From NCBI GenBank assembly GCA_039621445.1, contig CP154954.1, positions 38,425,703 through 38,489,702 on the forward strand: 64,000 nucleotides of DNA. The letters are read 5' to 3'. Positions 1 to 28,300 of the stretch are shown one piece after another (position 1 is the first letter of the stretch; each line of letters starts with the position of its first letter). The notes under the pieces are model-generated. The model worked only from the letters and a program-made list of their open reading frames with translations. It was not told where the DNA came from and searched no databases. A program made the translations under genes and the position numbers. This DNA comes from Euglena gracilis (taxonomy: Eukaryota).

Positions 1-657
1 TCGGATGTGGAGCTACACTCCGCCAGGGGGCATTAGCCCTAGGGTTCGAGGCACTCGAAGTCCTCCATCCCTTGCCTCAGCTCCTGATGCTTGGCGATGG
101 CGTGCTTGATAGGGGTTGCTTGTCTTTGGTGTCACTGCTCGGCCGAAGCCGCAATGGTTTAATCGTGACACGTCAGGTGGGCAAACGCCGTTGAATCTAT
201 GGTTCGCCGGCCCTTACCCATCAGGCACGCCAGGGTCGAGCCTCTGGTTGCTGATTTCTACCTCGGCGCCATCGGAACTTCCCGCCATACGGCAACCATT
301 CCTTACCCCGCCTGGCAGCGCCGTATGCCATGGCTGGTTCAAATCCCGTGCACCCCCGGATCGGAGTTTAGCTCATCGGGACTCGAAGCCGCGCGTCCAG
401 AAGATGGTACCGATCGAAGCCGGCCCTCGGGATGTAAATTTGTGATGCTGGCGCCATGTCAACGTCCTCACCCGCCACCGACGGGGGCTCTGCGGGCGGT
501 GGTGCAGCAGGAGGGATGGACATTTGTGATGCTGGCGCCATGTCAATATCCTCACACGGAACAAATGGTGGGTCTGTAGGAGGTCCGGGGTTACTTTCAA
601 TGTCCCCGCAGCTGAGTAAAGACCGTCCTCGGCCCGCTCCCCCCGATGCTGCCAGTG

Positions 658-2350
658 TGAAAGATCCGGGCAGCATGCCCACAATGGCAATTGCTGGCAT
701 GCAGATGGCAGCTTCCGCAACACTGGCATTCTTCAACCTTCAGAACACAGAACTTACACACCCAGCAGACTTTGCATAATCTCCCCTTTGAATTTGCCAG
801 GCACTTGGGACACCCAATCCCAGGGGACTTTCCCAATTCTTCTTCCCCTTGGCGCGCAGCATAAGCCAAATGCACAAATACAGCAGAACACTCCTTCAAG
901 TCCAGTCCACAGCGCCACGCAAACAAGTCATGGGATTTGCCCTACCAGCAAAATGAATTAGGAACTTGTCTGCTGGAAATCCTTAATTCACCAATCTGTA
1001 ATGCCACATGTTGTAATGCCACAGGCTGGCATGCCAAAAGTTGCTGTGCAGCAAGGCCACTCACACTCCCCTCTCCGGGCGAGCTTTGCTGGGTCCAACT
1101 CCCAACAAAGCGAGTCAAAAAATTAAAAAGTGGCCTTGGTTGCAGTCACACCCATAAAATAAAAAAATAGAAATTTTAAATACGGTTCGAAGTGTTGCAC
1201 CTGTCTTGGGGCAAAGCTCCCTCAGGTGGACACTCCTACAGCAAACACACAGGCAGGCTGCAGAGGAAGGGCACCCACACCCCCTTGGAACCTCCTCCCC
1301 TGATGACCTCTTCTTTTTCAGGGGAAGACATCCCAAAGATGCCCCTTGGACCATCATGGGTGGAAACCTACCCTTCCACCCAAAATGGCCCAGAGAGTTG
1401 GGTGGGGTCCCAAGCAGGGGGTGAAATGGGCAAACTGGGGCATTTAAATTCTAGTTAATTTGGTCAACCGCGGCTCACCACAACCCACTGTCGAGCCATT
1501 TAATGAGATTTCCACCCAGCAAACACCCACCGCGGCATGGCCACATGCCCTCAGCGGCCATCTCCCACAGACATGTGTAATTTATTGGGTTTACTGCCCC
1601 AGAATTGGCCACAGACACAGCACGCGGCATGCCACAAACATCAGCCAAATACCTCGAATCTGACCTGTCCAGCTTGCCATTACTTCCCCTTCACTTTCTT
1701 CCTCCTCTCTCTTCTTCCCCTTGTTCTGGCTTTTCCTTCTGTCTGCACCCCCTTGTCGCACATCTCGATTGCATGTCTGAATTTGGAATCTCCATGTCCA
1801 AAATTGTCTTCAACACTTCTGTCCGAAACCTTCCCATGACCAAATCTGGCATTGCAATCTTCAGCATGACTGCCCAGATCATGCACTTTCTGAGCATCTT
1901 GGGCAGAGAACTTGTTTGTACAGGCTGGACTGACTTGTTTGTGAAAGATCCGGGCAGCATGCCCACAATGGCAATTGCTGGCATGCAGATGGCAGCTTCC
2001 GCAACACTGGCATTCTTCAACCTTCAGAACACAGAACTTGCACACCCAGCAGACTTTGCATAATCTCCCCTTTGAATTTGCCAGGCACTTGGGACACCCA
2101 ATCCCAGGGGGACTTTCCCAATTCTTCTTCCCCTTGGCGCGCAGCATAAGCCAAATGCACAAATACAGCAGAACACTCCTTCAAGTCCAGTCCACAGCGC
2201 CACGCAAACAAGTCATGGGATTTGCCCTACCAGCAAAATGAATTAGGAACTTCTCTGCTGGAAATCCTTAATTCACCAATCTGTAATGCCACATGTTGTA
2301 ATGCCACAGGCTGGCATGCCAAAAGTTGCTGTGCAGCAAGGCCACTCACA
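658..2350 (-). mobile_element. Mini LTR retroelement 1 (non-autonomous, TRIM-like, putatively self-priming)
   Basis: Near-identical direct repeats at 658-1065 and 1942-2350 read TGTGAGTGG...TTCA on the minus strand. The 4-bp TSD AGTG is at 654-657 and 2351-2354. A PPT (GGAGAGGGGAG, minus) is at 1066-1076. The 11-nt PBS at 1931-1941 is complementary to LTR positions 2205-2215. No gag/pol. Confidence 0.9.
1590..2162 (-). pseudogene. Small Cys-rich/Arg-rich ORF of LTR element 1, with in-frame stops
   Basis: ORF 1680..2162 (CPKC..CKVCWVCKFC..KGVQTEGKARTRGRRERRK) continues past stops as WQAGQVRFE..GQFWG, matching the ORF of LTR element 2. Confidence 0.55.
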
Positions 2351-2656
2351 AGTGTAGGCTGTGTCCTGTATTTCGCAGGAGTGTAAGGCACAAGCACTTT
2401 TCTTTGTTTGGCCGACGTTGGGTGGTCTTTTCCGGTCAGCGGAGAGGTAACCTGGGGGTTGTCAAATTCATATTGCTGAGGGAAGGTTGAAGGCCAGCAG
2501 AATCTGGCAGAACTGGCTGGCTGCGGGGCCACTGTTGCAGACCAAAAAGTGGATGTGCTGTCTGGCTGGGTGGCCACTGTTGCAGGCCAAAATGTGGAGG
2601 AACGTGGTTCGCCAGTTCGTCGGGGGCTTTTCAAGCTGAGAGCAAAAATGGTGGCA

Positions 2657-3392
2657 GGGGGGGCCTTTGAAGGCCCATGGCCTTTGCAGGCCACTGGGAC
2701 AAAATGCTGCAACAGGACCAAAAGGTGTCACAGGGGGGCCTTTGCAGGCCCAGGGTCTTTGCAGGCCACTGGAGCAAAATGGCGTTGGAAGGGGGCCTTT
2801 GCAGGCCCATGGCCTTTAGGCCACTGGGGCAAAATGGTGCAACAGATCGAAATGGTTTCACAGGGGGGCCTTTGCAGGCCCAGTGACTTTGCAGGACACT
2901 GGGGTGAAACGGTGTCACTGAGGGGTTGAGGTGGCAAAATGTTTTTCAATTTCAAGTCAAACTGCTGCAAAAAGTGTCATTGAGGGGTTGGGGTGGCAAA
3001 ATGTTTGTCAATGTCAAGTCAAAACTGCTGCAAAATGTGTCACAGCTTTTGGTGTAACATGTGCTGTGAAAACTGGGGGTTTGCCACTTCAATTGATCAA
3101 AGGTTTGGGATGCAATGCAGAACACAGAAAATAAGACCTTGGAGCTGAAAGTAGCACTTAATGGTTGGCAGATGGGGGGCCTTTGCAGGCCCAAAGGGGG
3201 GGCCTTTGGAAGCCCAAGATGAGGGGCCTTTGCAGGCCCAAATGGAGGTGCCTTTGAAGGCCCAAAGGCGGGGGGGGGCTTTTCAGGCCCACTGGCTGGA
3301 CGGGCCTTGTCAGGCCCTGTAGCAGATGGGGCCTTTTCAGGCCCAGGGCCTTTTCAGGCCAGTGGTGGTGTTGAGGGGGCGTTTTCAGGCCT
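2657..3392. repeat. Dispersed array of the short hairpin motif GGGCCT-TTGC-AGGCCC
   Basis: More than a dozen variants of gggcctttgcaggccc in two clusters (about 2657-2890 and 3175-3392), upstream of and overlapping the start of the 2A ORF. Confidence 0.85.
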
Positions 3393-3427
3393 TTTTTTTG
3401 CTAGAATTAAGAGGACCAGAAAGCGAG

Positions 3428-3478
3428 AACGGTGGTGGGGCGAACCGAATCCACCGACCAGTGGCACAGCCTACTGGA
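3428..3478. repeat. 51-bp double-hairpin motif, copy 1
   Basis: aacggtggtggggcgaaccgaatccaccgaccagtggcacagcctactgga is identical to 13882-13932. Stems are cggtgg/ccaccg and ccagtggc/gcctactgg. Confidence 0.9.
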
Positions 3479-3552
3479 GTTGAAGGTCCGCAGGCGGTTA
3501 TGATAATTAATTTAATTTTTTATTTTAATTGTAATTTAATATTTTTTTTTTA

Positions 3553-4419
<867 letters not shown>

Positions 4420-5082
4420 TGTCGTCTTTTTGATCTTTGTCGGTCATAACTAACGCGGGTGATTGGTGGTGCCTGAAATTACATGGTGCCAGGATGGGCC
4501 AGCATGGTGGGCCAAATCCTGTTTTGTCTTCTTGCGTGAAGATGAAGTGTTTTCAGACCAGGCTTTTGTGACTCATCGTTTCTGGGATACGATGAGAATC
4601 CTGTGCAATGCAAATGCAAGCTGTTTGTTGTGACAGAGCTCTTTGTGTCCCAAGCCTTGTTTTCCCGATGTTGTTGGTCATGGCTGGAAGAGGTCCTGGG
4701 TGGCCAGTGGACCGCAAAGTGCAAAGTACATAGAGCAAGGGTGATGGGCCGGCGATGGGGGGACTGGAGGAGCTGAGGAAGTATTCTCAGACCGGTTTTT
4801 TTGTGCGTAATATGTTGGATTTCTGATCTTTGTCGGTTCTGGCTGCTGTCCCAAATTGTGGTATGTTGCTTACATACTATACTGCTGTTCATCATTGTGA
4901 TGGGACGGTCTCAGCAGTAGCCTTTGATTTTCAGCAGCCTGCGGGAAACATTCTTTGTGTCCTCCTGCAGGTTGTGCTTTAGTCCAGATTATAAGGTTGA
5001 TGCGCCAGAACAGGACTTTGCATATCTTCAGATCCCAGGCATTGAGCCCACGACAGTTGTCGACACACTTCTCGGGCCAACA

Positions 5083-6369
5083 TGTGAGTGGTCCAGGTGC
5101 ATTTTTATGGTCACCATGTAATCACAGGCTGAAGCCTAATTCAAACAGGCAGATCGTGATTCACAGAAAAAATGATGGCGCTGTCTGTAGGTAGCTGTCA
5201 ACATACACTGTTCACTCTATTGTCTGGGATTACTTTCCTGAGAGTGTATTTGTTTGATTTTGTCTGCGGCGCAAGTTTATTTCAAGTTTGGTCATTGCTG
5301 CTGGAAGTGGGATTTTGGGAAAGAGATTTCAGTGAAAGGGATGTCAAGTAAAGGAAGGGGCTCCAGAAGTCAGGTCCGTGGTAAGGGGACCTCGGACATT
5401 CATGAACAGTGTATCAGGACAGTGTCCCAGTCCAGTTCGAACAGGGGACGCCATCGAGATGTACAGCCAGATTTGGTGAGATGTCGTTCAGTTGCCTGCC
5501 AGACAGATTCTCTGAGACTGGAATCCGTGGCTTGCCAGACATTTTGCAAAAGGCGGACAAGGGCCAGACGGCTACAGCGGAGATGGCTCGACCACCAAAA
5601 AAGATTTGAAGGTTTGAAGATTGATGGACAAAATTGGGGACCAGATTGGACATTGCAAAGTGATTGTGATTGGTAATTACAATTTGCTGCAACTTTGATT
5701 GTGGTCGGCTGCTGGGTGTTTGTCTTTGACTGTGGCCTGACGCCGCGGTACTGTGTGTACACCTGTGGATCGGCTGCGAAAGAATTTATCCGATGTGGCC
5801 TGATGTCGCAGAAGTGTGCTGCAATTTGGCTGCTGATCATTCATTCGCTGTAACATAGTCACTCAGATCGTGTCACCCCTGTGTGCTGTGTAGTGTGTCG
5901 GTGGCAGGTGTGAAGGCAATCACCCAGGACAGTACCATTGCAATTTCAAATGGACCACTTTTTTGCCTGGCTCCCCCAAAAATTTCGATGCACCTGGCCC
6001 AAATTGGAGTCAGGTCAGATTGCCGAGGGCAATCTCTTGAGCAGGGGGGTGGGAGTGGTCCAGGTGCATTTTTATGGTCACCATGAAATCACAGGCTGAA
6101 GCCTAATTCAAACAGGCAGATCCTAATTCACAGAAAAAATGATGGTGCTGTCTGTAGGTGGCTGTCAACATACACTGTTCACTCTGTTGTCTGGGATTAC
6201 TTTCCTGAGAGTGTATTTGTTTGATTTTGTCTGCGGCGCAAGTTTATTTCAAGTTTGGTCATTGCTGCTGGAAGTGGGATTTTGGGAAAGAGATTTCAGT
6301 GAAAGGGATGTCAAGTAAAGGAAGGGGCTCCAGAAGTCAGGTCCGTTGTAAGGGGACCTCGGACATTCA
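5083..6369 (+). mobile_element. Mini LTR retroelement 2 (non-autonomous, TRIM-like, putatively self-priming)
   Basis: 320-bp LTRs at 5083-5402 and 6050-6369 (TGTGAGTGG/TGGGAGTGG...TTCA). The 4-bp TSD AACA is at 5079-5082 and 6370-6373; the empty site gggccaacacaatgc is visible in the sister repeats. A purine tract gagcagggggg is at 6039-6049. The PBS tgaacagtgtat (5403-5414) is complementary to 5203-5214. Confidence 0.92.
5254..5676 (+). CDS. Small basic ORF of LTR element 2
   Basis: Open frame from the 5' LTR into the internal region. SVACQT occurs twice, followed by KRRTRARR, WLDHQKRFE and GQNWG, shared with the element 1 ORF. The start codon is uncertain. Confidence 0.5.
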   Translation: MILSAAQVYFKFGHCCWKWDFGKEISVKGMSSKGRGSRSQVRGKGTSDIHEQCIRTVSQSSSNRGRHRDVQPDLVRCRSVACQTDSLRLESVACQTFCKRRTRARRLQRRWLDHQKRFEGLKIDGQNWGPDWTLQSDCDW

Positions 6370-8007
6370 AACACAATGCTTAGTCCTACTCTGCTTCGCA
6401 GGATCTTCTTTCCCAGGGCTCCTTCTGCCCCAGGATGGCTCGGATGCAGGTCCCCAAAAAGATTCTGCCTTCATCTCCAATGCCACCACGTGGAGTTACG
6501 GGTTCAATATATATGCGTAATGTACAAAGCCGTGTCACAGGGTAAGAGGGCCGTTGTCGATCTTTTTTGTGTCTCATGTGCCATATTTCCGATCTTTGTG
6601 GTCATAACTAACGCGGGTGATTGGTGGTGCCTCAAATTTCATGGTGCCAGGATGGGCCAGCATGGTGCTCCAAATCCTGTTTTGTCTTCTTGCGTGAAGA
6701 TGAAGTGTTTTCAGACCAGGCTTTTGTGACTCATCGTTTCTGGGATACGATGAGAATCGTGTGCAATGCAAATGCAAGCTGTTTGTTGTGACAGATCTCT
6801 TTGTGTCCCAAGCCTTGTTTTCCGGATGTTGTTGGTCATGGCTGGAAGAGTCCTGGGTGGCCAGTGGACCGCAAAGTGCAAAGTACATAGAGCAAGGGTG
6901 ATGGGCCGGCGATGGGGGGACTGGAGGAGCTGAGGAAGTATTCTCAGACCGGTTTTTTGTGTGTCATATGCTGGATTTCCGATCTTTGTCGGTTCTGGCT
7001 GCTGTCCCAAATTGTGGTATGTTGCTTACATACTATACTGCTGTTCATCATTGTGATGGGACGGTCTCAGCAGTAGCCTTTGATTTTCAGCAGCCTGCGG
7101 GAAACATTCTTTGTGTCCTCCTGCAGGTTGTGCTTTAGTCCAGATTATAAGGTTGATGCGCCAGAACAGGACTTTGCATATCTTCAGATCCCAGGCATTG
7201 AGCCCACAACAGTTGTCGACCCACTTCTCGGGCCAACACAATGCTTAGTCCTTGCCAGCACTCTGCTTCGCAGGATCTTCTTTCCCAGGGCTCCTTCTGC
7301 CCCAGGATGGCTCGGATGCAGGTCCCCAAAAAGATTCTGTCTTCATCTCCAAGGCCACCACGTGGAGTTACGGGTTCAATATATGTGCGTAATGTACAAA
7401 GCCGTGTCACAGGGTAAGGGGGCCGTTGTCGATCTTTTTTGTGTCTCATGTGCCATATTTCCGATCTTTGTGGTCATAACTAACGCGGGTGATTGGTGGT
7501 GCCTCAGATTACATGGTGCTAGGATGGGCTAGCATGGTGGGCCAGATCCTGTTTTGTCTTGTTGCGTGAAGATGAAGTGTTTTCAGACCAGGCTTTTGTG
7601 ACTCATCGTTTCTGGGATACGATGAGAATCGTGTGCAATGCAAATGCAAGCTGTTTGTTGTGACAGAGCTCTTTGTGTCCCAAGCCTTGTTTTCCCGATG
7701 TTGTTGGTCATGGCTGGAAGAGGTCCTGGGTGGCCAGTGGACCGCAAAGTGCAAAGTACATAGAGCAAGGGTGATGGGCCGGCGATGGGGGGACTGGAGG
7801 AGCTGAGGAAGCATTCTCAGACCGGTTTTTTGTGCGTCATATGCTGGATTTCCGATCTTTGTCGGTGCTGGCTGCTGTCCCAAATTGTGGTATGTTGCTT
7901 ACATACTATACTGCTGTTCATCATTGTGATGGGACGGTCTCAGCATTAGCCTTTGATTTTCAGCAGCCTGCGGGAAACATTCTTTGTGTCCTCCTGCAGG
8001 TTGTGCT

Positions 8008-11000
8008 TTAGTCCAGATTATAAGGTTGATGCGCCAGAACAGGACTTTGCATATCTTCAGATCCCAGGCATTGAGCCCACGACAGTTGTCGACCCACTTC
8101 TCGGGCCAACACAATGCTTTGTCCTTGCCAGCACTCTGCTTCGCAGGATCTTCTGTCCCAGGGCTCCTTCTGACCCAGGATGGCTCGGATGCAGGTCCCC
8201 AAAAAGATTCTGCCTTCATCACCAATGCCACCAAAATAATCCAGGACCAGGGGCACAAGTGACCATCCCAGCCTGCTGCATACATCTTTGTACTTTGTCA
8301 CTTTTTCTTTCTCCTGTCTTTCATGCCAGCGTTCCCAACTTTGATCAGTCACTGGGTGGGACGGCGCCAGTGGATGCCGCACTGAGACATCTATTGCAGC
8401 CGGGCCGTTTGCATCGAACCTAGTGATGAAAACATCCCCAGGTCGTCTTCCATCTCCAGTGCCCTCTTCACGCCGAGCAGTATAGCCTGCCGCCTGTGCC
8501 AGCTGCAGGATGAAGTTTTGAATTCCTGCATGTCGCCGTGCCAAATTGTTTTTTTGTGCAACAAACCAGGTGATTCCCTTGATCATCCATCACTGTCTCA
8601 CATCGTGGACACTTTGCCTCCAAACCTTCGTGTGGAGCTACAACAGTCATCCCAGAGTCCATTGTAGAACTGCTCGGAATTCACCTGGGGGCATCAATGT
8701 CTTTTTTGCTGCACAAGGGTTTGCTGCCACCCACGCCAATGCATGAGGTTTCTGTTGGCTCAAAATACGCACCTTGTCAGCCCCGGTGGAATGCGTTACC
8801 AAGTCAGCTCCTCGTTTCTCAGAGAGCTTGTCGTTCCAGAATTTCTGGGAACTTTCCACTTTCCCCAGGTGAGGAATCCGATTGGAGTCCTGTAGTATCA
8901 AAGTTGTCAAATGACTCTCCCCCGTGATTTGTTCGACTGTGCGACCTGTCAGAACGAAGTCTGATGGTAATAGCTCAAGTTCTTTCGGGAACGAGACACT
9001 GTGTTCTGCTCTTTTGCAGAAATCCAAAATAGCAGCCCATCTGGCCACTGGCCTGGTCTTTATTGCATCGTGCAGTCCCAGGCCTCCCAGTCGAATGGGG
9101 ATGGTGGATTGCTCCCATCGAGCTTTTCAGTGAGCTGTCTTCGTGCAATATTGCTCAAACTGTCACGGACCAGGGCAGAGAAGAGCCGTACCATATCTTC
9201 AGAAGAGTTCAAGCGTTGTTCCTCGTAGAAGATCATTTACTTTGCAGCTGGCAATGCACTGGCGCAACAGGTGGAAACGAATGTGGCCGGAAGGAATGAA
9301 CTGCAGCAAGTAGCACAATTTTTCACAAGCTTTCAATCTGTCCTGCCAAATGGATCGCGCAAACGTGTCATCTCCCGGGTACGTCACAGGTATCCCCAGG
9401 GCTTTGATTCCAGATCCCTCCACAAAGGATGTTGCCGGTATTCGTTGCAACACACTGCTTCCCTGTGGCAATCTGCGAAAGGAATCATTGACGGCTGGGC
9501 CCCACAGCCGACATTTGTCCATGTTCAGACTGACCCCAATCGCAGGACCGTCTGCCAAAAGCATGCGCACCACACGATCCAGCTGTTCCATGGATCCAAT
9601 TAGATGGCAGTCGTCCAGGTACCAGCACTGCCATGGCACCATTTCTGCAATTTTGTTGACCAAAGGTTGCACCGCAATGCAGAAAAGAGCCGGGCCACAA
9701 GGGTCCCCTTGTTGAACTCCCGTTTTGGACCTCAGGCTTGTGTTTCCACAATACAAAGGGGAATGTGAACCATGGCATGATTCAGTCCAAGCTGTCATGT
9801 GTGGTACCTGCTGTCGCACTTGATGTAACATGGGTTCCCGTTTCAATTGATTGAAGGCGTTTGCAAAATCCAGCTGCAGAACAGCCCATTCTGTTTTCCC
9901 TGCCTTTTGCAGTCCTTGAACAATTTGTTGCAGTGCAATACTGGTGAGAGCACAAGCGTCAGAATGGCCTACACCGACTTGCCCAGGCAGCCCGTCAATC
10001 AGAGTGTTTCGTACAGTGGCTTCTTTTAACAGAACTTTGGCAAGCAACCGTCTTAAAACTTCTCCTGCCGCAATTGGCCTGGTTCCTTCGTGTTGCAAAT
10101 CGTTGTCCGTATGCAGCATCACATTACCGGCAGCATCTGTTTGTGGTTTCTTCTTTCTCAACGGCGTCAGTCGTGCTCCTGCCAAGATGGACCCCATTTC
10201 CAAAGGCAGTCCTTGTTGGATTGCCGAGAAGACAAAGGCGGAGATTTCTTCCAGTAAATCATCACCACAGCCCGCAGCCTGTGCGGAGATCAATGTTTTG
10301 AGATGGTCAGCCCGCTCGGTCCTCCTGCTGTTTCGTTTTTGAAGGACAGGATGGCCCGTCTCACGGCCTTTTTCATGTGGGCGTCTCCTTCTTGTCCCTC
10401 AGGGACTGGCAGGCGCACTCTTCCGTCGGGGGGCCCTTTCCCGGGCGGATCTTCTGATGGGTGAAGCAGACGTAAACGCTCACGAATTTTTGCATCATTT
10501 GCATCTTGGACTCCGTCTGACAACATTGCCTGACGCGCCTTTGCCGTTGCCCCTCTTTCCACCAGTTTCTGCATTCTGTTGAGAAAGGCTTCTTGTTGGA
10601 TTTCCTCCTCTTTACTTTTTGCTGATCGGGTTTTGACGCTGGATCCGAAATTCGCTTCCGACGGCCTGGACGACTCCCAGCATTCATGGACGTCTTTTTC
10701 CAGGTACGCCTTGGCTCTGGTACACAGCAGCCGCCCAATTCTGGCCCAGTGGGATCGTCCACCCTGACCAGTGCTTGCCAGGACTGCCTTTGGAAAACAC
10801 CACAAAGAGTGAAAGGCCTCCCAAGAGCCTTCTTGTCGTAATCGTCTGAACAAGAGGGTCAGGGTTCGTGCCACTTCCCCCAGCGCTCCTCTGGGGATCA
10901 ATGTCAACGTGGTCCTCGGTCATGTGCAATGTCATCCCATGCAGGGCGCAAACCTTTGGGACACGGTCCTTGTAAGGTGTGACACCCCCCCAAGTCCACT

Positions 11001-16327: not shown

Positions 16328-19300
16328 TCAGGGGGGAAATGCGTTTCGCATTTTTTTTTGCATTTTTGCGCATTTTTTCAAATTTTTTCGCATTTTTTTT
16401 TCGCATTTTTTTCCTTTTTTTCCGCACGTTTTTTTGCTTTTTGGCACAGTTTTTTGTGATTTTCCAAAATTTTCGCATTTTTTTGACCATTTTTGACCAT
16501 TTTTTGCAAAAATTTGAAAATTTTGACTTTTTTGAAACGTACATTTTCCTCATTATTACATAATTTCTTCAAATTTGGTGCCATTTTTGCACGTTTTTGG
16601 GTAATTTTTGCATTTTCGTGATTTTTGCGCATTTTTTCTCAGATTTTGCACATTTTTGCGCATTTTTCTCCAAAAATGCGCATTTTTTGTGCATTCTTTT
16701 GCGCATTTTTGCGCATTTTTTTCCGAGGCCGGGCGAGCGCATTTGCTCCCCTGCACACATTCCGAAGCACACATGCACACACCCACACCACATCATTTTT
16801 AATGAAAGATTTTTGCACCATATTTTCCAATGATCTCCCCAAATTCTTCTTTTCAATTTGCGAAACTGGTGGAAGATGGACAGCGCCAGAAAAAGATACA
16901 AAAACACCCCCTTTTCCATACTTTTGAGCATATTGCCCTTTTTGATCATTTTTCGATGTTTTGGTGTTTTATGAAAGATTTTCTATACAAAAATCGACCG
17001 ACACTAACAGATTCAGCAGGGGCGCCGGGCGCGAGCGAGCGAAGCGAGCCGCCCGGCGCCCCTGCTGAATCTGTTAGTGTCGGTCGATTTTTCTAAAACC
17101 TATTTTGTCTGGGCCCGACGCCTGTCTTGATATTCATTCGACCGAACCGCCTGGACGGAAATATGGTCAAAAAAGTGGTTTTTGGCCCATTAACGGGCGC
17201 CTGAATGGAAATCGACCGACACTAACGGGCGCCTGAATGGAAATCGACCGACACTAACGGGCGCCTGAATGGAAATCGACCAACACTAACGGACGCCTGA
17301 ATGGAAATCGACTGACATAAACGGTTTCCGATGTCTTGGAAATCGACCGACCTTTTGTGTCCTTTTTTTGAATGCCTTTTGTTCCGTTTCGGGACATTTT
17401 AGGTGTCAGCCTGAAATCCGTTAATGTCGACCCAACCTTTTGTTCCCTTTTTCGGAATGCAGCTTTTCTTCCATTTTGAAACAAACAATCTCTACATCAA
17501 GAACTGTGTCTTAAACGCAGACTCTGCATTTTTTCGGAATGCATTTTTTCTTCCATTTTGCCAAGAACAATCTCTACTACAAAAAAGGGGTGGCGGACGC
17601 CGGTTCTGTCCAAAACCCGGCGTTCCAAACGCCGGTTCCGTCCGAAGGACGGAACCGGCGTTTGGAACGCCGGGTTTTGGACAGAACCGGCGTCCGCCAC
17701 CCCTTGTTTAAAGCGGCGTTTTAGAGACGCCGGGTTCAGGACAGAACCGGCGTCCCCACCCTTCGGTCAAAGGACACTCCCAGGACCAATCTCCGACCAC
17801 TTATCTGCAATGTCACGCCACCTTGCATTTCACCAAATTCCGGCGATCGCGAGGGTATTTCTGGCTGTGTCGATCGCCTGGGTACAAACTCACCCCTCGA
17901 TCGAAAGCTCTTTTCATCAGACGACTGGCGATCACCACCAAATTCAGCGACGCCGCCTGGAGCTCTTACTTTCTGTCACTGGGAAATCCTAATTTCACAA
18001 CTCTGGTGCCCCCCAGAACCCCTCAGGTGGTCGCTTCGAAGAGAAGAAACGTTTCTGTAAGGTTTATTCAGCATCTTAAACCAAAAATCACTGAAAATTA
18101 CCACAAATTTCGACTAAGATTCTGGCCGATCCGACGATCGCGAGCGTATCTCTGGCTGCGTGCAACGTTAGGGTACCAAGTTACCCCTCGATCGAAAGCT
18201 CTTTTCAACAGACGACCAGCGGTGCTCATCAGACCTTTCCACGCCGCACGGTACTCTTTATCAAAATCTGGGCCAATTTCACGAAATTTGGACATCCACC
18301 CCACTGGTCCCCAAATGGCAAAAATCATTGTCCTACATGGTTAAAACAGTCATACCAGGAGCTTTGGGCCACTTTTGGGCACTTTTGGTGACATTTTTAG
18401 GAATGAAAATCGGACGCCGGGTTTTGGACAAAACCGGCGTTCCTAACGCCGGGTTTTACACAAAAATCGTCCATGTCACCCGGACACACCGTGTGTCCGG
18501 GTTATGGGCGCCGAAGGCGCCCATAACCCGGGTACACGGTGTGTCCGGGTTACAATGGACGATTTTTGTCTATATCCGTTGACTAAGAGGCCCAAGACAC
18601 ACACTGTGTCTCGTGGAACTTAGCCACGCAATGTCTACCCCGTATTTTTTTGCGATTTTTTGTCAAATTTTCAGTTCACGATGACACACACTGTGTCTCG
18701 TGGACTGCCAGTCCACGAGACACAGTGTGTGTCCTCGTGAACTGAAAAAAATCAAGAATTCCCACTGGTCCGACCAACAAGGGACAAGTTTTACCACATT
18801 CCGCTACCTGTCCTTGCAGTTTTTTCTTTCGGAAAATGAAGAAGACCGCAAACAGTGTGGACCGCATGCTCCCCCGACCCCCGAAACCAGATGAATTTGT
18901 TGCTACACTGGAAAAGTATTTGGTCGATTTGCAGAAGGGCCCTGCTGTTGACCCAATACACGGTACGTTGTTGGCCAACGTGTTGGAAGAGAAGCCAAAA
19001 GGGACCGCAATTGCTGAGCGTGTAGCTGTTACACGCCTGTTGGAGTTCCAGCAGGTGTGTAAACATCTGAACGCTCAGTATGAGGACCTGGATGGCTTTT
19101 TTTCCGCATGGGCTGGTTGGGTCATTGACCCCAGATATTTGTTTGATGAGGCTACCCTCATCAATCAAGCTGAGCAACAACGCCGGGGCACAGTGTGGCA
19201 CCACATTCAGTTTCGAGACATACCTGTACCATCTCAGCTGTTACAGCTCACGGTTGTCCGGTGACCATCTTTCCACTGCCCTGCTGCATTGCATTAGATG

Positions 19301-22300
19301 TAGAACACCTCGCATTTCTGGCAAACACCTTTTATTTTTCAGTCCACGAGACACAGTGTGTGTCCCAGTCCACGGGGACACACACTGTGTCTCGTGGACT
19401 CAGTCCACGAGACACAGTGTGTGTCTTGGGCCTCAGTCCACGGATATTAGGACAGAACCGGCGTCCGAAAACCCGTGGGGGGGGACGCCGGTTCTGTCCT
19501 GAACCCGGCGTCTCAAACGCCGGTTTTATCTCAAGAACTGTGCCTAAAACGCAGACTCTGCATTTTTTTAGAAACACAGATTTTGACCAAAGCCATGTTG
19601 CCAGGAACACAGCCTTGCAATAGAATAGAATTGCAATACAGGCGTCGAGCCCAGAAAATAGGTTTAACGTGGCCAAATTACTCCTCACCCGAAAGCTTTT
19701 CTTTCAGATGACCAGTGATAACAACTGGTTCAGGGCAAATTTGCCGAATGCTTTTTCTGAAGTCCCAGAAAATGATAATCTTCAGCTCCGTCCTTCCGTC
19801 TGTTCCATCAAAGTTCAGCCAGCTGTGATCACCTGACCACAAAATTTGGTTTTTTTCTGGTCCAAAACGCCTCCACAACCCCATAGGACCAAAAATGTCT
19901 TCAAAAAAGGGAGATCCAAAATGTCCAAAAAGTCACCAAAAATTCCCAATCTGACCAGCAACAGATTTCAATGGAATGGAAATCGACCGACATAAACGGG
20001 CGCCTGAATGGAAATCGACTGACATAAACGGGCGCCTGAATGGAAATCGACTGACATAAACGGGCGCCTGAATGGAAATCGACTGACACAAACAATTTCA
20101 GGCTGAAATCCGTTAATGTCAGTAGAATTTCAAGACAGGCGTCGGGCCCAGAAAATAGGTTTTAAGATTTTTCAAAAATGAGCATTTTTGGATTAATTTT
20201 CTACACACAAATTGTGGCTGAGCCCAGATTTCAGCCTGAAAACGTGTTCAGCCAGGGGGCCCCCGAAGGGGGCCCCCTGACGTTTTCAGGCTGAAATCTG
20301 GGCTCAGCCACAATTTGTTTGAAAACGTGCCTAACCACAGATGCCTTAATTGAAAACGTGTCATTGCCACAGATGCCCTCATTGAAAACGTGTCACCCCC
20401 CCCCTTTTTTTTTTTTTTTTCCCACTATGGCGAAACGCACGGCTAACTTTGTGAATGGTCTTTTGCCACCTCCCCCTAGGACGGAACTGTTCCTGGCTGC
20501 TCTCGCGGTATACCAGCAAGATGCCAAGAAGCCGAAGGTTGACCCCCTTCTGGCACCTTGCTGGCACAGGGCAACGTAAAGAAAAGGTCCGGCTCCGTGG
20601 GAGCAGAGGCTGCTGTTGCCAACTGTTTGGAGTTCGCCAAACTGTGTCAACATCGGAAGCATCTTATCCTGAGCTGCATGCTTTCTTTGTTGCCTGGATG
20701 GGATAGGAGCTGGAACCCAGCCTGTTGTTCGATGAGGCGAGCGTCATTTAACAATGTGTGGCTCAACGTGAGCAGCAGTCGGGAACTTTGTTCGTTTCAG
20801 GGAATTGTTCGGCAACCTCTTTTCTTCTTTGCCATTCCCAAAAATCCAAATTGGAGCTGAACAAAGTTGTGTGTGACGCCTGTGGTTTGGCATATCATTT
20901 TCATTGCCAAGATTTGCGGTGGCCACCAAAGTTTGGCTCTTTTTTTGTGTAAAGCGTGTCGTGTTCCGTGAGGTCCGCCACTCCGTGTCGTTGTGCTCCA
21001 AGGCAACCTAGCTTTCTGTTGTGTTTAGAGTGCCCTCGATCCGCCTCACTCGTTGAGGACCACCCGGCCTCGCAACCGCCCGCCGATTTTTCATGACAGC
21101 GTTTTTTGCTTTTTACTCAGGGTTGCCACAGATGCCTCATTGAAAACGTGCCTGACCACAGATGCCTTAATTGAAAACGTGTCATTGCCACAGATGCCCT
21201 CATTGAAAACGTGCCTAACCACAGATGCCTTAATTGAAAATGTGTCATTGCCACAGATGCCCTCATTGAAAACGTGTTCATGACCACGAATTTCAGGGCA
21301 GGCATTTGGCGGGCTGAACATGTTTTTAAGGCACGTTTTTAAAGAAATCAGGGATTTTTGAACAATTTTGCCCGATTTTCCAGCCGTTTGCCCGTCCACA
21401 AAACCAGCCCCCCCCCCAAATTTCGAGGTAGGGGGTGGGGGGGGGGGTCCCTCATCCATCCTCCCCGTCGGGCCAGGACTTTGGGAGATAAATAATACCC
21501 AGGGGTGTTCACCTCCTCCTCTGTCCCTCTACCCCCGGGGCACGAGGTATCAAAAAAAAAAAGTGGCAAGTTTTGGTTCATATCAGGTGGCCGCACCGTC
21601 CCCGGGCGGAATATTGGCCATGCTGGTTCTGGACGGGCCGACCTCTGGAGGTCGACAGAAATGGCCACTGACTGTGCTGCATTATCCCTCGGGCCGACCT
21701 AGTCAGCCCGACCTGTTGCTGCGGCCGCGCGAGGGGGGGGGGGCTCGGACCTGGCCAATCCACGCACCAATCCCCCATTGTATCTGCCGGCTGTAACTTC
21801 ACCTTCCAAAGCTGGTGTCTCCTCCGAGTCCCCCCCCCCACGTCCCAGACACACCCTATGGGTGGGGCGGGAGGGTCCAACCACACCCCACCATGCCGCA
21901 AAGGGGCAAAGCAACTCCCTGGAGATTTCACATCCAAGGACCTGATTGCCTCTTCATTCAACTGTTCCATTTCTTTCCTTTTCCCCCTCACAGAGAACAC
22001 CCAGATTATGCTGATGTTGCCATCAAGTCTGCCAAATTTGAGGCCATGGTGTCTCGAAAACATGCACCCAAGATGTCACAAAGCATCAATTTCTTCACCC
22101 CAATACCTCCTGGAACCCACAACCAGACAATGGCAAGGGAAAAGTCAAGGCTCAGCAAAAAAAATAATCTTCGCTCGGCCAGTGTCCTGGGACCACAAGG
22201 GGGGGGGGGGAATGACGGGGGGTTGCTTGGTTTTTTTTGCCATTTGAGAGAAAGTGAACTGGAGTGGGAGGAACATGGGGGGAGTGGGCAATAATTGAGG

Positions 22301-25300
22301 ACAAAGTGTCAAAATTCACTAGTAAGAAACACCATGTTTGCTTGGGGTTTTCACCAATGCTTTGATCCATTTGGTGTGGCAGAATCCAACGACGTTCCAA
22401 CCATCATCCATCCACCGCCATCACTGCCCTTTGCCATCTTGCAAGCAACAATCAAGAAAGTCACCAGAGGGTGGGCCATCATCGACAACAAGAGCACAAA
22501 TGGGGTCATGGTAAATCGCCAACCTATCCAGGCAGATGTGCCGATGCCCATCAAGTGTGTTCTGTCTTGTCAGGTTACCATGCTCCTCCTCATGAGACCC
22601 CCCCTGGCCAGCCAAAAGCAGGCCCTTTGACTGAAGCCAACCCCTCCCCCATTGATACCCTGGAATTCACCTGTTTGTGGAGCACCCACCCACCCACCCC
22701 TTGGGGTGCTCCCGGGGGGGGGAGGGGGGAGGCCCGGGGTTCATTCGGGAGCGTGATTTGGCCCTCCTTATTTTGCACACACAAGGGGATTTTGTTATTT
22801 TTGGCGGGGGTCCGGGGCATACAATTTCTTACCGACCCTGGGGGGGTCACTCCACTTTTTTAAAAACCAGTCAGTCACCCATTTTCAAAAAACCAGCCAG
22901 TCACTGCCCCCGGGGGGGGGGTCGGCCACTCAGAAAAACGGCCACTTTCCAGTTACTTTAGGCCATTTCAGGCCAAAAAAAAAATTTCCGGCGCCTTCGA
23001 CACCGGGGTCACTCAAGCCACTTTTGCCCGCTCCTGGCCGCCCCCCCCCCCGGGGGGGAGGGGGTCCGGGCCCAAAACCAGTCAGTCACTCTGAAGAAAC
23101 TAGTCACCCACCCCCCGGGGGGGGTCGGTCAGTGCTTTAGCAATTGCCTGGTCCGGGGGGGGGGGGGGGGGGGTGGCAGCCCCCCCCCCCCCCCCCGGAG
23201 GAGGCCGTAGGTCGACTAAGTTCGCATATTGGGGTTCATACGGGGGCGCGATTTGGCCCTCCTTATTTTTCACACACAAGGGGATTTTGTTATTTTGGGC
23301 GGGGGGGGGGGGTCCGGTGGGTGGCGCCCCCCCCCCCCCCCCCGGAGGCCGACTAAGTTCACATATCGGGGTTCATTTTTTGCAAATGGACCCCCGAACG
23401 GGGGGTTTCTGAAGGCATTTGGGTGGGTTTCGAGTCATTTTCCTCCATATTTGAATGAAAATTTTTGGAGGGGGGGGGCTTAAAATTTTTAGAGGGGGTA
23501 GACTGAAAATTGGTGGTCGGAGCGACTAGTCGCTCCGACCACCAATGGTCGCTAGGCCATCACCAACAGTCGCTAGCGACCACCAAAAAATCCATCACCA
23601 ATTTCCCGCAATGAGCCCATCACGGGCAAATACAGGGAGATGTTTAACCCCCCAAAATAACACCTTGATAATTGTGAACGGCCGGCAGCAAAAATTACTC
23701 GCCACTGGCGTCATGGTCCGAAGGCCAGGCCCCAGTCCTATTGAATGTCCAGGCCCTGGTCCCCCCTGGAGCCAAAAAAGCTTCAGTGGCAGAGAGCCAT
23801 GGGCAGACAGGGGGAAGCGCACCTGGGGGGGTTGCAGTCCTATGGCATACCCCTCTGGCGTCTTTGGCACCGCGGGGGTCAGTGGAATTTTGAAAGAAAA
23901 ATGGGGTTTGGTGGGCGGCCATTACACAAAAATCGTCCATGTCACCCGGACACACCGTGTGTCCGGGTTATGGGCGCCAAAGGCGCCCATAACCCGGGTA
24001 CACGGTGTGTCCGGGTTACAATGGACGATTTTTGTCTATATCCGTTGACTAAGAGGCCCAAGACACACACTGTGTCTCGTGGAACTTAGCCACGCAATGT
24101 CTACCCCGTATTTTTTTGCGATTTTTTGTCAAATTTTCAGTTCACGAGGACACACACTGCGCAGTGCCCTAATTCCCCCCCCAAATTAATGTGCAGTGCC
24201 CTGTTTGTGCGCACCCGCCAAAGGTCCGAAACTAGCTCCCTAAAAAGTGCGCACCCCCCCAAAGGAGAAACTGTCACATCTCAGGTCGGAAAGCACACAC
24301 AATTCTTCCATCCTCCAATCCCAAATTTGACACATTCCACCAGATGTGTCTCGTGGACTGGCAGTCCTCGAGACACAGTGTGTGTCCTCGTGAACTGAAA
24401 AAATCAAGAATTCCCACTGGTCCGACCAACAAGTGCCCCCCAATAACTTGGCCTTTCGGCAACTTTTGGCTTAGAGCATAAAGGTTTCTCGTGGACAAGT
24501 TTTACCACATTCCACTACCTGTCCTTGCAGTTTTTTCTTTCGGAAAATGAAGAAGACCGCAAACAGTGTGGACCGCATGCTCCCCCGACCCCCGAAACCA
24601 GATGAATATGTTGCTACACTGGAAAAGTATTTGGTCGATTTGCAGAAGGGCCCTGCTGTTGACCCAATACACGGTACGTTGTTGGCCAACGTGTTGGAAG
24701 AGAAGCCAAAAGGGACCGCAAAGGCTGAGCGTGTAGCTGTTACACGCCTGTTGGAGTTCCAGCAGGTGTGTAAACATCTGAACGCTCAGTATGAGGACCT
24801 GGATGGCTTTTTTCCCGCATGGGCTGGTTGGGTCATTGACCCCAGATATTTGTTTGATGAGGCTACCCTCATCAATCAAGCTGAGCAACAACGCCGGGCA
24901 CAGTGTGGCACCACATTCAACTTCGAGACATACCTGCCTTCTACCGTTTACAGCTCACGGTTGTCCGGTGACCATCTTTCCACTGCCCTGCTGCATTGCA
25001 TTAGATGTAGAACACCTCGCATTTCTGGCAAACACCTTTTATTTTTCAGTCCACGAGACACAGTGTGTGTCCCAGTCCACGGGGACACACACTGTGTCTC
25101 GTGGACTGCCAGTCCACGAGACACAGTGTGCGTCTTGGGCCTCAGTCCACGGATATTATCCCCAAAGGCTTTGACATCCTGCCGAAATACAACCAGATCT
25201 TACTTTGGTTTTGTGCCCATCATTTTCCCCTCCTACAGAGATGGCGATGTCATCACATTTGGAACCGACCAGTCAGACCTTGTGTACACTTTTGAGGTGT

Positions 25301-28300
25301 GTTCCAAGTTCATGTGGGTTCAGAGCCCAGCTGATTGTTCAATTGGTTTTGTCTGATTTTGCGGTATTAATGTAGTTTGCAATGTCAATTGGGGTTAACC
25401 ATGAGCCTTTTGCAATGCCTTGACCATGCCCCCCCCCCCCCCGACCTCCCCAAGCTATTCCCATAAGGGACAGGAATACCCCCCAAAGTGGCCACCCTCC
25501 AGGCACTGTGGGACCCCAAAATGGCCACTCTGGAGGGGGGGAGACACTTTGGGGGGGGGGTTCAAATTTTGGCCTTCAGTGCCTTTGGCGCCGAAGGAAA
25601 ATGGCCACTTTGAGGGGGGGGGGTGAACGAAAATTTGCCAAACCTTTTGGCTATTTTGGGGGGGTGAGGGTGGCTCACTGTCATAGCAGTTTTATGAGAG
25701 GTCAAAAAAAGTGCTCAAAATCGACGTTTTTTTGGACGCTTTTTGGACTTTTTTTTTTGGACGTGTTTTGCACATATGGCATAAAGTGGAACCCTTACAC
25801 TTACACCAAACACTCACAGTTTCGGGGATGTTTTGCCATGATTTTGGACACTTTTGCCAAAAATTTTGGAACCTTTTTGAAAATAAAAAGAATGGGGTTT
25901 TCAGAGATTTGGACTCCGTTTGGAACTTTTTTGCAAGTTTTTGGGACTTGCCAGTTTTTTTGTTCCCCTTTGCCTGCAGTGTGTTTTTTTTGAATACCTG
26001 TCCATCCAAACGCCGGCATAGCTGGCAGCTCGTGTAAAACGCAGCCAAAAAGATGGGTTTTTTTTGAAATATTTTTTATTATTTTTTTTTAAAAAAGCCA
26101 GGTACACCGGGTTGAATGCTGCACACGCAGCCCATTGACCAAGAGGGAGGTATCGCCGTCTGACCAAGGACAAACTGGAGGACATCTTATGCAGTAAAAC
26201 TGCGTCTTGTACGCATACTCTGTCCTGAGACTCAGACAGACTCAGGACGGAGTCCCCGGGGCCGGGGGGCCCACTAGCAGGGCTAGCTGGTGGAAAATTT
26301 TCAGTACCCACTTGCCTAAAATGCCCATTTTGGCAACAAATTCAGCCCAAAAAAACATGTCACCTGCACCCCCCTATTCCCCCCCAATTGGCTCATCGGC
26401 CTCCGGGACAAGACGACTGTTTCGAAAGTTTTAAAAATGTGCCAAATAAAGAAAAGTCATTGCAAATCCCACTATGCACAGGTCTTCCCCCTGTTTGTCC
26501 CCCCCCCCCCCGTAATGTTGCCACCACCTCACCCCACCCTCCCCACAGTGGCCACCCTTCAGGCACCGTGAGACCCCAAAATGGTCACTCTGGAGGAGCG
26601 GACACTTCGGGGGGGGAGGGGTCAAATTTTGGCCTCTTTGGCATCGAAGGCAATGGCCACTTTGAGGAGGGTAAACCAAACTTTGGCAAAAATTTTTGGC
26701 CACTTTGTTGGGGATCAGGGTATGATCTCATTTGATCAGCTGTGTTGCTCTTAAGAGCTGTGGGGTTGCACCGATTTGTTCAGAGATTGCACAGCCAGTG
26801 ATTTGTTGGATTTAGAGAGCTTTTGTAAAATGTCCCAACATTTTTTTTACTGCCAAGTGTCAAAGTCTCCATAACGGAATCTCAAAAATTTTGGTGAAAG
26901 GTCCCAGGCGTTTTGGCAAAAGAGCCCAAAATTATGGCAAAGTGGTCAACAATTTTGGCAGGAAGTCCCAAAATTGTGAGTGTTAGGTGTAAGTGTGGGG
27001 TGTGTGGGGGGATGTGTAGGGGGGAAACAGGCACCTATGCCGACCGCAGCCGACCGCGGCCGACCGCGGGTTTCAGGACTGTCATAGGTGGGGTGCCGAC
27101 CGCATCCGACCGCAGCCGACCGCGCAACTTTTTTCTAATTGATGTCAATTTTTCAGTGAGAATGAGGAATTAGGCTCATTTTTATCCCAGATGTTGAGAT
27201 TTTTCTGGCTCATCTGGCTCATGTTGTCACTTTTGGCCACTTTTTGCCATTTTTGGTCGCTTTTGTCCCCTTTTGGCCCATTTGCCACCATAATTCACCC
27301 ATTTTGACCTATTTTGACCGTTTTTGGCCACTTTTTGCCCACTTCTTGTAATTTTGGGCCATTTTGTCCTGCTCTTGGGCTCTGTGCTCGGAGGTGCCGC
27401 CAGCTGCGGAATGGTGAGCTTCTGCCTTGGCAGTGGGGCAAGGGGTGGAGGGATGGAGTCAGCAGCGGGGGCCATTGAGTCCGACGGCTCGTGTCGCATG
27501 ATGTTTTGATTGAACAAAGCATATGGCGGAGTTTCTCGATGAGGAGCACTTTTTCGCTGAGGCCGGCCAGCTTGGAGGTGGCATTCTGGGCCATTTTGGG
27601 CCATTTTTGACTATTTAAAGCCGCTTTCGACCTTTTCTTTTGTTATTTTTGCCCATTTTTTTGGTCTCTTTTTGGTCCAATTTGACCATTTTGAGCATTT
27701 TGCGCCAGTTTGTTGCCAAAAGTGAACAAAAGCTGCTAAAGTGACCCAAATTGGCCAAAAGCAGAGTCATTTTGGGCCATTTTGGGGGCATTTTTTTTGT
27801 TATTTTTGTCTGCTTTTGGAACTTTTGGCGATTTTAACCATGTTTTGCCACTTTTAGGCCATTCTTAGGTCAAGTTTGGCTGCTCTTGATGTCAAAAGCA
27901 ACAAAAAGATGTTTAAAGTGGCCTGAAAGTGGCCAGAAGTGGGTAAAAATGGCCAAAAGCAGAGAAAAGTAGTCAAAAGTGGGTTAAAGAGGCCAAAAGT
28001 GGTCAAAAGAGGTCAAAGCAAAGCAAAAGCTGGCCAAAAGCAGCCAAAACACAGCAAAAAGTGGGCAAAAGCAACAAAAGTGACCAAAACAAAGCAAAAG
28101 GCAGGAAATAATGGGCAAAGGCAGCAAAAGTCGACCAAAAGTCGGCAACAGTGGCCAAAAGCAGTCCAAAAGCATCAAAAGCTGGCCAAAAGCAGCGAAA
28201 AGTGGCCAAAAGTCGGCAACAGTGGATTGTGTGATTGTTATATATGCTCATTTTTTGTTGGCCTGCCCCCCCACCTACAGCCAACTACCTTGCTGACCGC

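Follow-up and report, generated by a model that had tools for sequence, protein, structure and literature searches.

A miniature LTR retroelement family of Euglena gracilis that probably encodes a small arginine-rich protein

Introduction

Can a small non-autonomous long terminal repeat (LTR) element make a protein of its own? Such elements are usually regarded as pure RNA parasites of autonomous partners, and the terminal-repeat retrotransposons in miniature (TRIMs) are defined as non-coding. The question is raised by a 64,000-nucleotide (nt) stretch of the Euglena gracilis contig CP154954.1 (assembly GCA_039621445.1, positions 38,425,703 to 38,489,702 of the forward strand), which is called the window here and numbered from its first base. 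It holds two small LTR-bounded elements, element 1 at 656-2350 on the minus strand and element 2 at 5083-6369 on the plus strand. A sequence-only reading of the window had claimed that open reading frames (ORFs) of the two encode the same small protein, a selected accessory peptide, possibly with an Arg-rich RNA-binding or localisation segment and a site for the dynein light chain LC8.

Here, we compare the two ORFs with each other, with protein and contig libraries and with randomized sequences. These comparisons make it probable that the element 2 family has a true small protein as its product, which carries an Arg-rich, probably RNA-binding helix. For both elements jointly, the best explanation, with a probability of about one half, is that the element 2 family carries a genuine gene of ~110 codons whose product would act on RNA, and that element 1 holds a truncated, chimeric or decaying version of it.

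Results

The element 2 ORF spans 5341..5676 on the plus strand and encodes 111 amino acids (aa). Its ATG is the first one after 5175 and precedes the LTR end (5402) by 62 nt, so the frame crosses the LTR end and stops in the internal region. The ORF contains the motifs ACQTFCKRRTRARR..WLDHQKRFE..GQNWG. Its core motif CQTFCKRRTRARRLQR is at 5533-5580 (plus) with a duplicated ACQTDS unit ahead of it, and the stretch KRRTRARRLQRR has eight Arg or Lys among 12 residues.

The element 1 ORF spans 1680..2147 on the minus strand and encodes 155 aa, with the stop at 1680-1682 included in the span. It starts at an ATG (2147) inside the 5′ LTR, runs over the LTR end and finishes with ...GVQTEGKARTRGRRERRKKVKGK, and its core motif VQTEGKARTRGRRERR is at 1701-1748 (minus). 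Beyond the stop come WQAGQVRFEVFG, a second in-frame stop at 1641-1643 and then ...GQFWG at 1596-1610. In the 3′ LTR, this ATG opens a frame of only 40 aa because of a 1-nt indel between the LTRs. In both elements the core is purine-rich and follows the 5′ LTR at a distance of 130-200 nt. Coordinates and translations thus confirm what the sequence-only reading had described, namely the ORF starts in the 5′ LTRs, the quoted motifs and the two in-frame stops of element 1.

The LTR-encoded N-terminal part of the element 1 ORF (1940-2147, minus) contains very many Cys and His residues (CPKC...CKVCWVCKFC...CQCCGSCHLH...CHCGH). Pfam gives no match to this part, and the abundance of the two residues probably reflects the TGC/TGG-rich LTR sequence.

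The main evidence for a gene in element 2 comes from an external homolog. A phmmer search of 1.84 billion representative proteins with the 111-aa ORF returned two matches at an expectation value (E) of 0.001 or better. One of them, P0001, is a 126-aa hypothetical protein (JGI/IMG) from a 1441-nt contig, and it matches residues 9-109 of the ORF with 41% identity at a library-wide E of 5.8e-8. In pairwise BLASTP the two reach 1e-17 and can be aligned in a single frame over ~115 residues, and tblastn with P0001 against the window finds element 2 at 4e-9 in one frame only. The other match, P0002, is a 1890-aa immunoglobulin-like repeat protein whose score sums five stretches, and was judged spurious.

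The similarity of P0001 to element 2 extends to both sides of the Arg-rich core. The upstream flank scores 76, a value seen in 0 of 2000 shuffles, and the downstream flank scores 45 (6 of 2000). Since the flanks are separately significant, one reading frame has been kept across several indels. The two proteins also have a duplicated unit in common (AAVQTDSPQLVEMAVQTYGK vs VACQTDSLRLESVACQTFCK), and the C-terminal end of P0001 falls within one residue of the element 2 stop.

Neutral drift seldom leaves such a frame open. In substitution-only simulations of drift to 42% residue identity, at ~67% nucleotide identity, the frame survived without a stop in only 21 of 2000 runs. Of the mismatches between the element 2 ORF and P0001, a fraction of 0.327 are conservative replacements, compared with 0.219 +/- 0.051 under neutral drift. 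Variation within the element 2 family was surveyed at the 40 of 135 variant places listed. Among these, nearly all family contigs have Phe in place of Ile20 (letter 5398) and Gly in place of Cys69 (letter 5545), as P0001 does, and the change at 5490 is synonymous.

P0001 also finds element 1. A six-frame scan of the window with P0001 covered 1278 chunks with a median score of 27. The 15 best-scoring chunks were listed, down to a score of 47, and among them element 2 came first (173) and element 1 second (71), ahead of the best background chunk (56). Both elements were matched in the frames named by the sequence-only reading, and the background matches fall in other parts of P0001. The GA/TA/CT microsatellite at 3540-4440 contributes no chunk to those 15. 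In BLASTP, element 1 with X at its stops matches P0001 at E 6e-7.

The similarity of element 1 to P0001 is limited to 16 residues, VQTEGKARTRGRRERR vs VQTYGKPRTRARRKQR, which score 63 (0 of 2000 shuffles) and follow the pattern VQTxGKxRTRxRRxxR. P0001, as an external homolog, brings the Arg-rich core above chance. Outside it, element 1 and P0001 are alike at chance level only, as shuffles reach the score in 795 of 2000 cases upstream and 1346 of 2000 downstream. As far as its sequence tells, element 1 keeps the core alone, at the C-terminal end of an otherwise unrelated, largely LTR-encoded ORF. That N-terminal part and the stop six codons past the core are the reasons to take it as a truncated, chimeric or decaying version.

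These results divide the earlier claim. The selected accessory peptide is upheld in part, as a conserved peptide-level element is indicated by the match of P0001 to the element 2 ORF and by the xQT/Arg-rich core at an equivalent place in element 1. The same small protein in both elements is too strong a statement, since element 1 is at chance outside the core, its N-terminal 130 residues are unrelated and it stops six codons past the core.

Compared directly, without P0001, the two elements give a borderline match that depends on the search space. Their peptides have a Smith-Waterman score of 48. Shuffling the residues of the two internal translations gives this score in 7 of 2000 trials, and random window segments compared with each element give it in 0 of 2000. 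When the first 400 nt behind each 5′ LTR are dinucleotide-shuffled and nine sense frame pairs are compared, it appears in 2 of 600 trials. A score of 49 is seen between antisense frames of the real elements, a plainly spurious match. Another null, taken from random pairs of real window segments, was dropped as true repeats inflate its scores (maximum 217). Downstream of the core, where the second and third motifs had been proposed as shared, the score between the elements is reached by 120 of 2000 shuffles, and P0001 gives these motifs no support.

All this could be a matter of chance and composition. The ORFs would then come from a stop-poor genome, P0001 would be a fortuitously open copy of non-coding sequence, and the element 1 core would be the accidental basic peptide of a purine tract. 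Indeed, stop trinucleotides amount to 2.7% in the window vs 4.5% expected from base composition, and the 64 kb contain 94 ATG-initiated ORFs of at least 111 aa and 99 stop-to-stop frames of at least 150 codons. Nearly all long ORFs of the window are without a Pfam family. An ATG-initiated ORF of at least 111 aa occurs on a given strand in 1014 of 3000 random 1-kb pieces, and on the opposite strand ORFs of 146 aa (5400..5840) and 144 aa (1629..2063), as long or nearly as long, run across the claimed ones. Because the window is poor in stops, ORF length is no evidence for genes in this genome.

Further observations weigh on the same side against a gene. BLASTP between the elements gives E = 1.1, shuffles of the whole elements reach the score of 48 in 46 of 150 cases over nine sense frame pairs and in 122 of 150 over 36 frame pairs, and tblastn with P0001 finds element 1 only at E 7.6, as the stops cut the alignment. 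P0001 is the sole outside relative, its cluster has one member on one contig, and coming from a protein library it is open-framed by selection. A profile built from element 2, P0001 and element 1 matched only P0001.

Some of the family variation and the structure model also count against it. At 5612 the family majority has Asp, unlike P0001 and the window copy, which have Gly. Among the diverged contigs listed, every one spanning at least 200 nt of the ORF (records 9 and 10 of run X13, record 25 of X5, and record 1 of X1, which is also record 26 of X5) has a single gap with a net one-base change in length. Older element 2 copies are without a kept frame; dead copies of any element would look alike. 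The AlphaFold2 model of the element 2 ORF is poor, with a mean predicted local distance difference test (pLDDT) score of 45.8.

Chance does not account well for the rest, however. P0001 and element 2 match in a single frame that continues past indels, and the similarity is significant to either side of them; in the simulations, the frame rarely survives neutral drift. In the six-frame scan only element 2 scores above element 1, which is matched in the frame and at the place expected from element 2, and the microsatellite, as a control, is absent from the listed top scores. We regard chance and composition as a somewhat unlikely source of the whole pattern, and continue with a gene in the element 2 family as the preferred reading.

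The core could otherwise be a cis-acting nucleic-acid signal, for packaging, dimerisation or as an internal polypurine site, that resembles a peptide only on translation. Its purine richness and its similar distance from the 5′ LTR in both elements would suit such a signal. However, the core DNA of the two elements is identical at 25 of 48 nt, and two of the four conserved Arg codons are AGA in one element and CGG in the other, so the conservation is at the residue level and not at the base level. Moreover, the internal DNA of the elements is unalignable, with a best local score of 26 compared with 21.3 +/- 2.1 (maximum 28) for shuffles, and Rfam gives no family at gathering score over the whole window. 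A cis-acting signal in place of a peptide is highly improbable.

The two elements are LTR-type retroelements, as follows from their LTR pairs, TG..CA ends and tracts before the 3′ LTRs. In both, the LTRs are direct, start with TG and end with CA, and a polypurine-type tract stands beside the 3′ LTR (GGAGAGGGGAG; GAGCAGGGGGG). No gag, protease, reverse transcriptase (RT) or integrase domain is found in either by Pfam in six frames of 1-8400 at E up to 0.1. The leaders of both start otherwise than TGG, and a tRNA scan of the 64-kb window finds no tRNA genes.

Element 1 consists of a 5′ LTR at 1940-2350 (411 nt), an internal region at 1066-1939 (874 nt) and a 3′ LTR at 656-1065 (410 nt), all on the minus strand. 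Read on that strand, the 5′ LTR starts with TGTGAGTGG and ends with TTTCACA. The LTRs are 99.3% identical across 411 nt aligned, with two substitutions and one 1-nt indel between them. The purine tract GGAGAGGGGAG (reverse complement of 1066-1076) adjoins the 3′ LTR and resembles a polypurine tract. The flanks of element 1, CACT and CTGG, show no target-site duplication.

Element 2 consists of a 5′ LTR at 5083-5402 (320 nt), starting with TGTGAGTGG and ending with ATTCA, an internal region at 5403-6049 (647 nt) and a 3′ LTR at 6050-6369 (320 nt), starting with TGGGAGTGG, all on the plus strand. The LTRs are 97.5% identical over 320 nt with eight substitutions, and the G-rich tract GAGCAGGGGGG at 6039-6049 comes directly before the 3′ LTR. 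A 4-nt target-site duplication, AACA, flanks the element on the plus strand (left 5079-5082, right 6370-6373). The insertion is in the first unit of an 872-nt tandem repeat, so that the uninterrupted site is visible in the other units, where it reads ggccAACAcaatgc near 7233-7246. Contigs from public runs bridge element 2 as well, joining 5082 to 6388.

The element 2 family is high-copy in the coded organism A, with 928 aligned contigs in run X5. Their likeness to element 2 is 99% or more in 312, 95-99% in 352, 90-95% in 187 and below 90% in 77. Coverage by contigs is as deep over the internal region as over the LTRs. Behind 5402, contigs diverge into unlike sequence with little mutual agreement, 10 of them in run X1 and four in run X13, hence 5402 is a true element end that is present at many insertion sites. 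Contigs of the metatranscriptome run X15 lie at 5270-5421 and 5840-6263 at a depth of 2-4. They fit an LTR transcript, and DNA carry-over is possible, so they are not counted as evidence for expression.

The two elements represent two different families of small non-autonomous LTR retrotransposons, since neither their LTRs nor their internal regions align; for the LTRs, the best local score is reached by 244 of 500 shuffles. Their first nine LTR bases are common, and exact TGTGAGTGG occurs three times in the window, always as an LTR start. The shared termini (TGTGAGTGG...TTCA) point to related integrases.

Common termini would also agree with another origin of the core, as a relic of a partner's first ORF. 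The two elements would then descend by internal deletion from related autonomous LTR retrotransposons and keep the first ~100 codons because a packaging signal overlaps them, and the residue conservation would arise from selection in the autonomous parents only. A related integrase suggests related parents, the element 1 copy is cut by stops, and the diverged element 2 copies have the net one-base indels. Non-autonomous elements that retain gag are known, such as TR-GAG (PMC4350172).

Yet, the ORFs of element 2 and P0001 end alike within one residue, which favours a discrete small gene over a truncated gag. The Gag, protease, RT and integrase domains are absent from every frame of either element, and phmmer, applied without a length filter, gave no polyprotein match. 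A relic of this kind, the chief rival, is unlikely, and a small gene of the element 2 family stays preferred.

Other searches for relatives are negative. In a 5.8-billion-protein library, proteins of near lengths include no match to the element 2 ORF at E up to 1 and none to the element 1 read-through. Among metagenome contigs, a protein-seeded scan gave 581 pattern matches with 0 confirmed and a 24-nt element 1 DNA pattern gave 0 matches, and scans of viral and genome contigs with an alignment also gave 0 confirmed. The ESM Atlas has no usable match to the element 2 ORF. Pfam has none for both ORFs (E up to 0.01), for the six-frame translation of 1-8400 (E up to 0.1) or for P0001 (E up to 1), and the sole match of a profile search in the PDB is a designed repeat protein (E 0.12).

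Overall, homology searching thus leaves one significant relative, P0001, and no Pfam or PDB relative. The sequence-only reading had allowed for its motif being a fragment of a known Gag; none of the described Gags was matched by Pfam or the PDB profile search.

Several neighbouring features are repetitive. Just past the element 1 3′ LTR, a 2A-like 'ribosome-skipping' motif ...SLLSCGDIESNPGP (581-604, minus) lies inside the ORF 368..700 and is followed by two 84-nt repeats encoding ED(V/I)DMAPASQ. Sequences of the 2A type are known at the start of non-LTR retrotransposon ORFs, and this one may mark such a start. Between element 1 and the microsatellite, short GGGGCCTTTGCAGGCCC-based repeats form an array at 2640-3370 with a spacing of 23-75 nt. 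The microsatellite itself (3540-4440) is a symmetric compound of ~900 nt running from (GA)n-rich through (TA)n to (TC)n, and its halves are roughly reverse complements. The tandem repeat that hosts element 2 extends over 4432-8233 with a unit of ~872 nt, at least three units being 96-98% alike, and is high-copy in the aligned contigs.

Two more distant features deserve a record. An ORF at 9199-10398 (minus) has the reverse-transcriptase domain RVT_1 at E 9.8e-16 and matches only eukaryotic RT clusters in the ESM Atlas; Pfam finds no other retroelement domains in the long ORFs neighbouring it. Blocks at 18456-19449 and 23922-25158 in direct orientation, ~5.5 kb apart, are 97-99% identical. They may represent a segmental duplication or a larger element of the LTR type, and Pfam, applied to 17000-26000 in six frames, gives no domain except for a sub-threshold FHA match.

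Discussion

Structurally, the two elements resemble TRIMs in the short LTR pair with TG..CA, the purine tract before the 3′ LTR, the internal region of 647-874 nt and the lack of pol, and element 2 does so also in its high copy number and target duplication. They differ in that the LTRs of 320-411 nt are longer than the classical TRIM LTRs and that element 2 seems to carry a conserved 111-codon gene with a frame-keeping homolog.

By content, the closest known case is TR-GAG of plants (Chaparro et al. 2015, PMC4350172), which is described as shorter than 4 kb with an ORF for a recognisable GAG related to the Copia/Gypsy GAG. Element 2 is likewise short, LTR-bounded and non-autonomous, and has one ORF but none of the enzymes. 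In its ORF of ~110 codons, however, no Gag domain was found, which is the defining feature of TR-GAG. Element 2 is accordingly TRIM-like in structure and nearest to TR-GAG by content.

The element 2 protein is predicted to be basic and mostly disordered, with two [A/G][V/C]QT units followed by K-x-RTRARR-x-QR-x-W. The one better feature of the poor AlphaFold2 model is a low-confidence helix (pLDDT 56-63) that covers residues 71-90 and with them the Arg-rich stretch. By analogy, this stretch most likely acts as an RNA-binding helix like those of Rev, Tat and phage lambda N.

Arg-rich motifs for RNA binding are found in the accessory proteins Rev and Tat of HIV and Rec of HERV-K and in lambda N, and CERV of the C. 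elegans element Cer1 is reportedly needed to export the Cer1 genomic RNA. The element 2 product would share with them a short Arg-rich predicted helix in a small, retroelement-encoded protein that is otherwise predicted to be disordered. Unlike them, its carrier is a non-autonomous mini-element instead of a full retrovirus or retrotransposon, and its ORF has no sequence homology to Rev, Tat, Rec, lambda N or CERV.

The xQT units invite comparison with the LC8 anchor, which Jespersen et al. 2019 (PMC6607443) describe as TQT. In it, Gln takes position 0, mid-sized residues flank it at -1 and +1, and Asp, Glu or Pro are preferred at +2. The units here agree in Q at 0 and T at +1, in Val at -1 in P0001 and element 1, and in Asp or Glu at +2 in three of five xQT units, and two units are 12 residues apart in predicted disorder. 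They deviate in that the anchors are VQT or CQT instead of TQT, VQTD and VQTE being a loose fit and CQTF a poorer one. According to the same paper, many peptides with a perfect anchor fail to bind LC8.

A bolder version of the preferred reading makes the protein an adaptor. A miniature LTR lineage would carry a non-Gag adaptor of ~110 residues, in which a Rev/lambda-N-like Arg-rich helix would hold the element's RNA and twin VQT units would recruit LC8 for dimerisation or dynein transport, and the partner's machinery would export, move and package the mini-element. If so, the lineage would stand next to TRIM and TR-GAG as a further class, of coding non-autonomous LTR elements. This version is decidedly doubtful.

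A simpler course of events can be proposed for the preferred reading, a small RNA-acting gene in the element 2 family. The gene would start in the U5-side part of the LTR and its Arg-rich helix would bind the element's own transcript. With the protein's help, the RNA could be packaged into the particles of a partner element or exported from the nucleus. The mini-element would thereby hitch-hike on its partner.

Support for element 2 as a coding non-autonomous LTR element is moderate and still thin, as it comes from a single outside homolog. If the ORF is merely a relic of a partner's first gene, the finding is an ordinary one. If the preferred reading is true, the mini-elements add an RNA-binding protein of their own to hitch-hiking and form a category between TRIM, with no ORF, and TR-GAG, with a Gag ORF. 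Outside retroviruses, they would also offer a short and easily testable candidate for a Rev-type accessory protein that handles RNA. The 'non-coding' hitch-hiker elements may thus sometimes make a small protein of their own.

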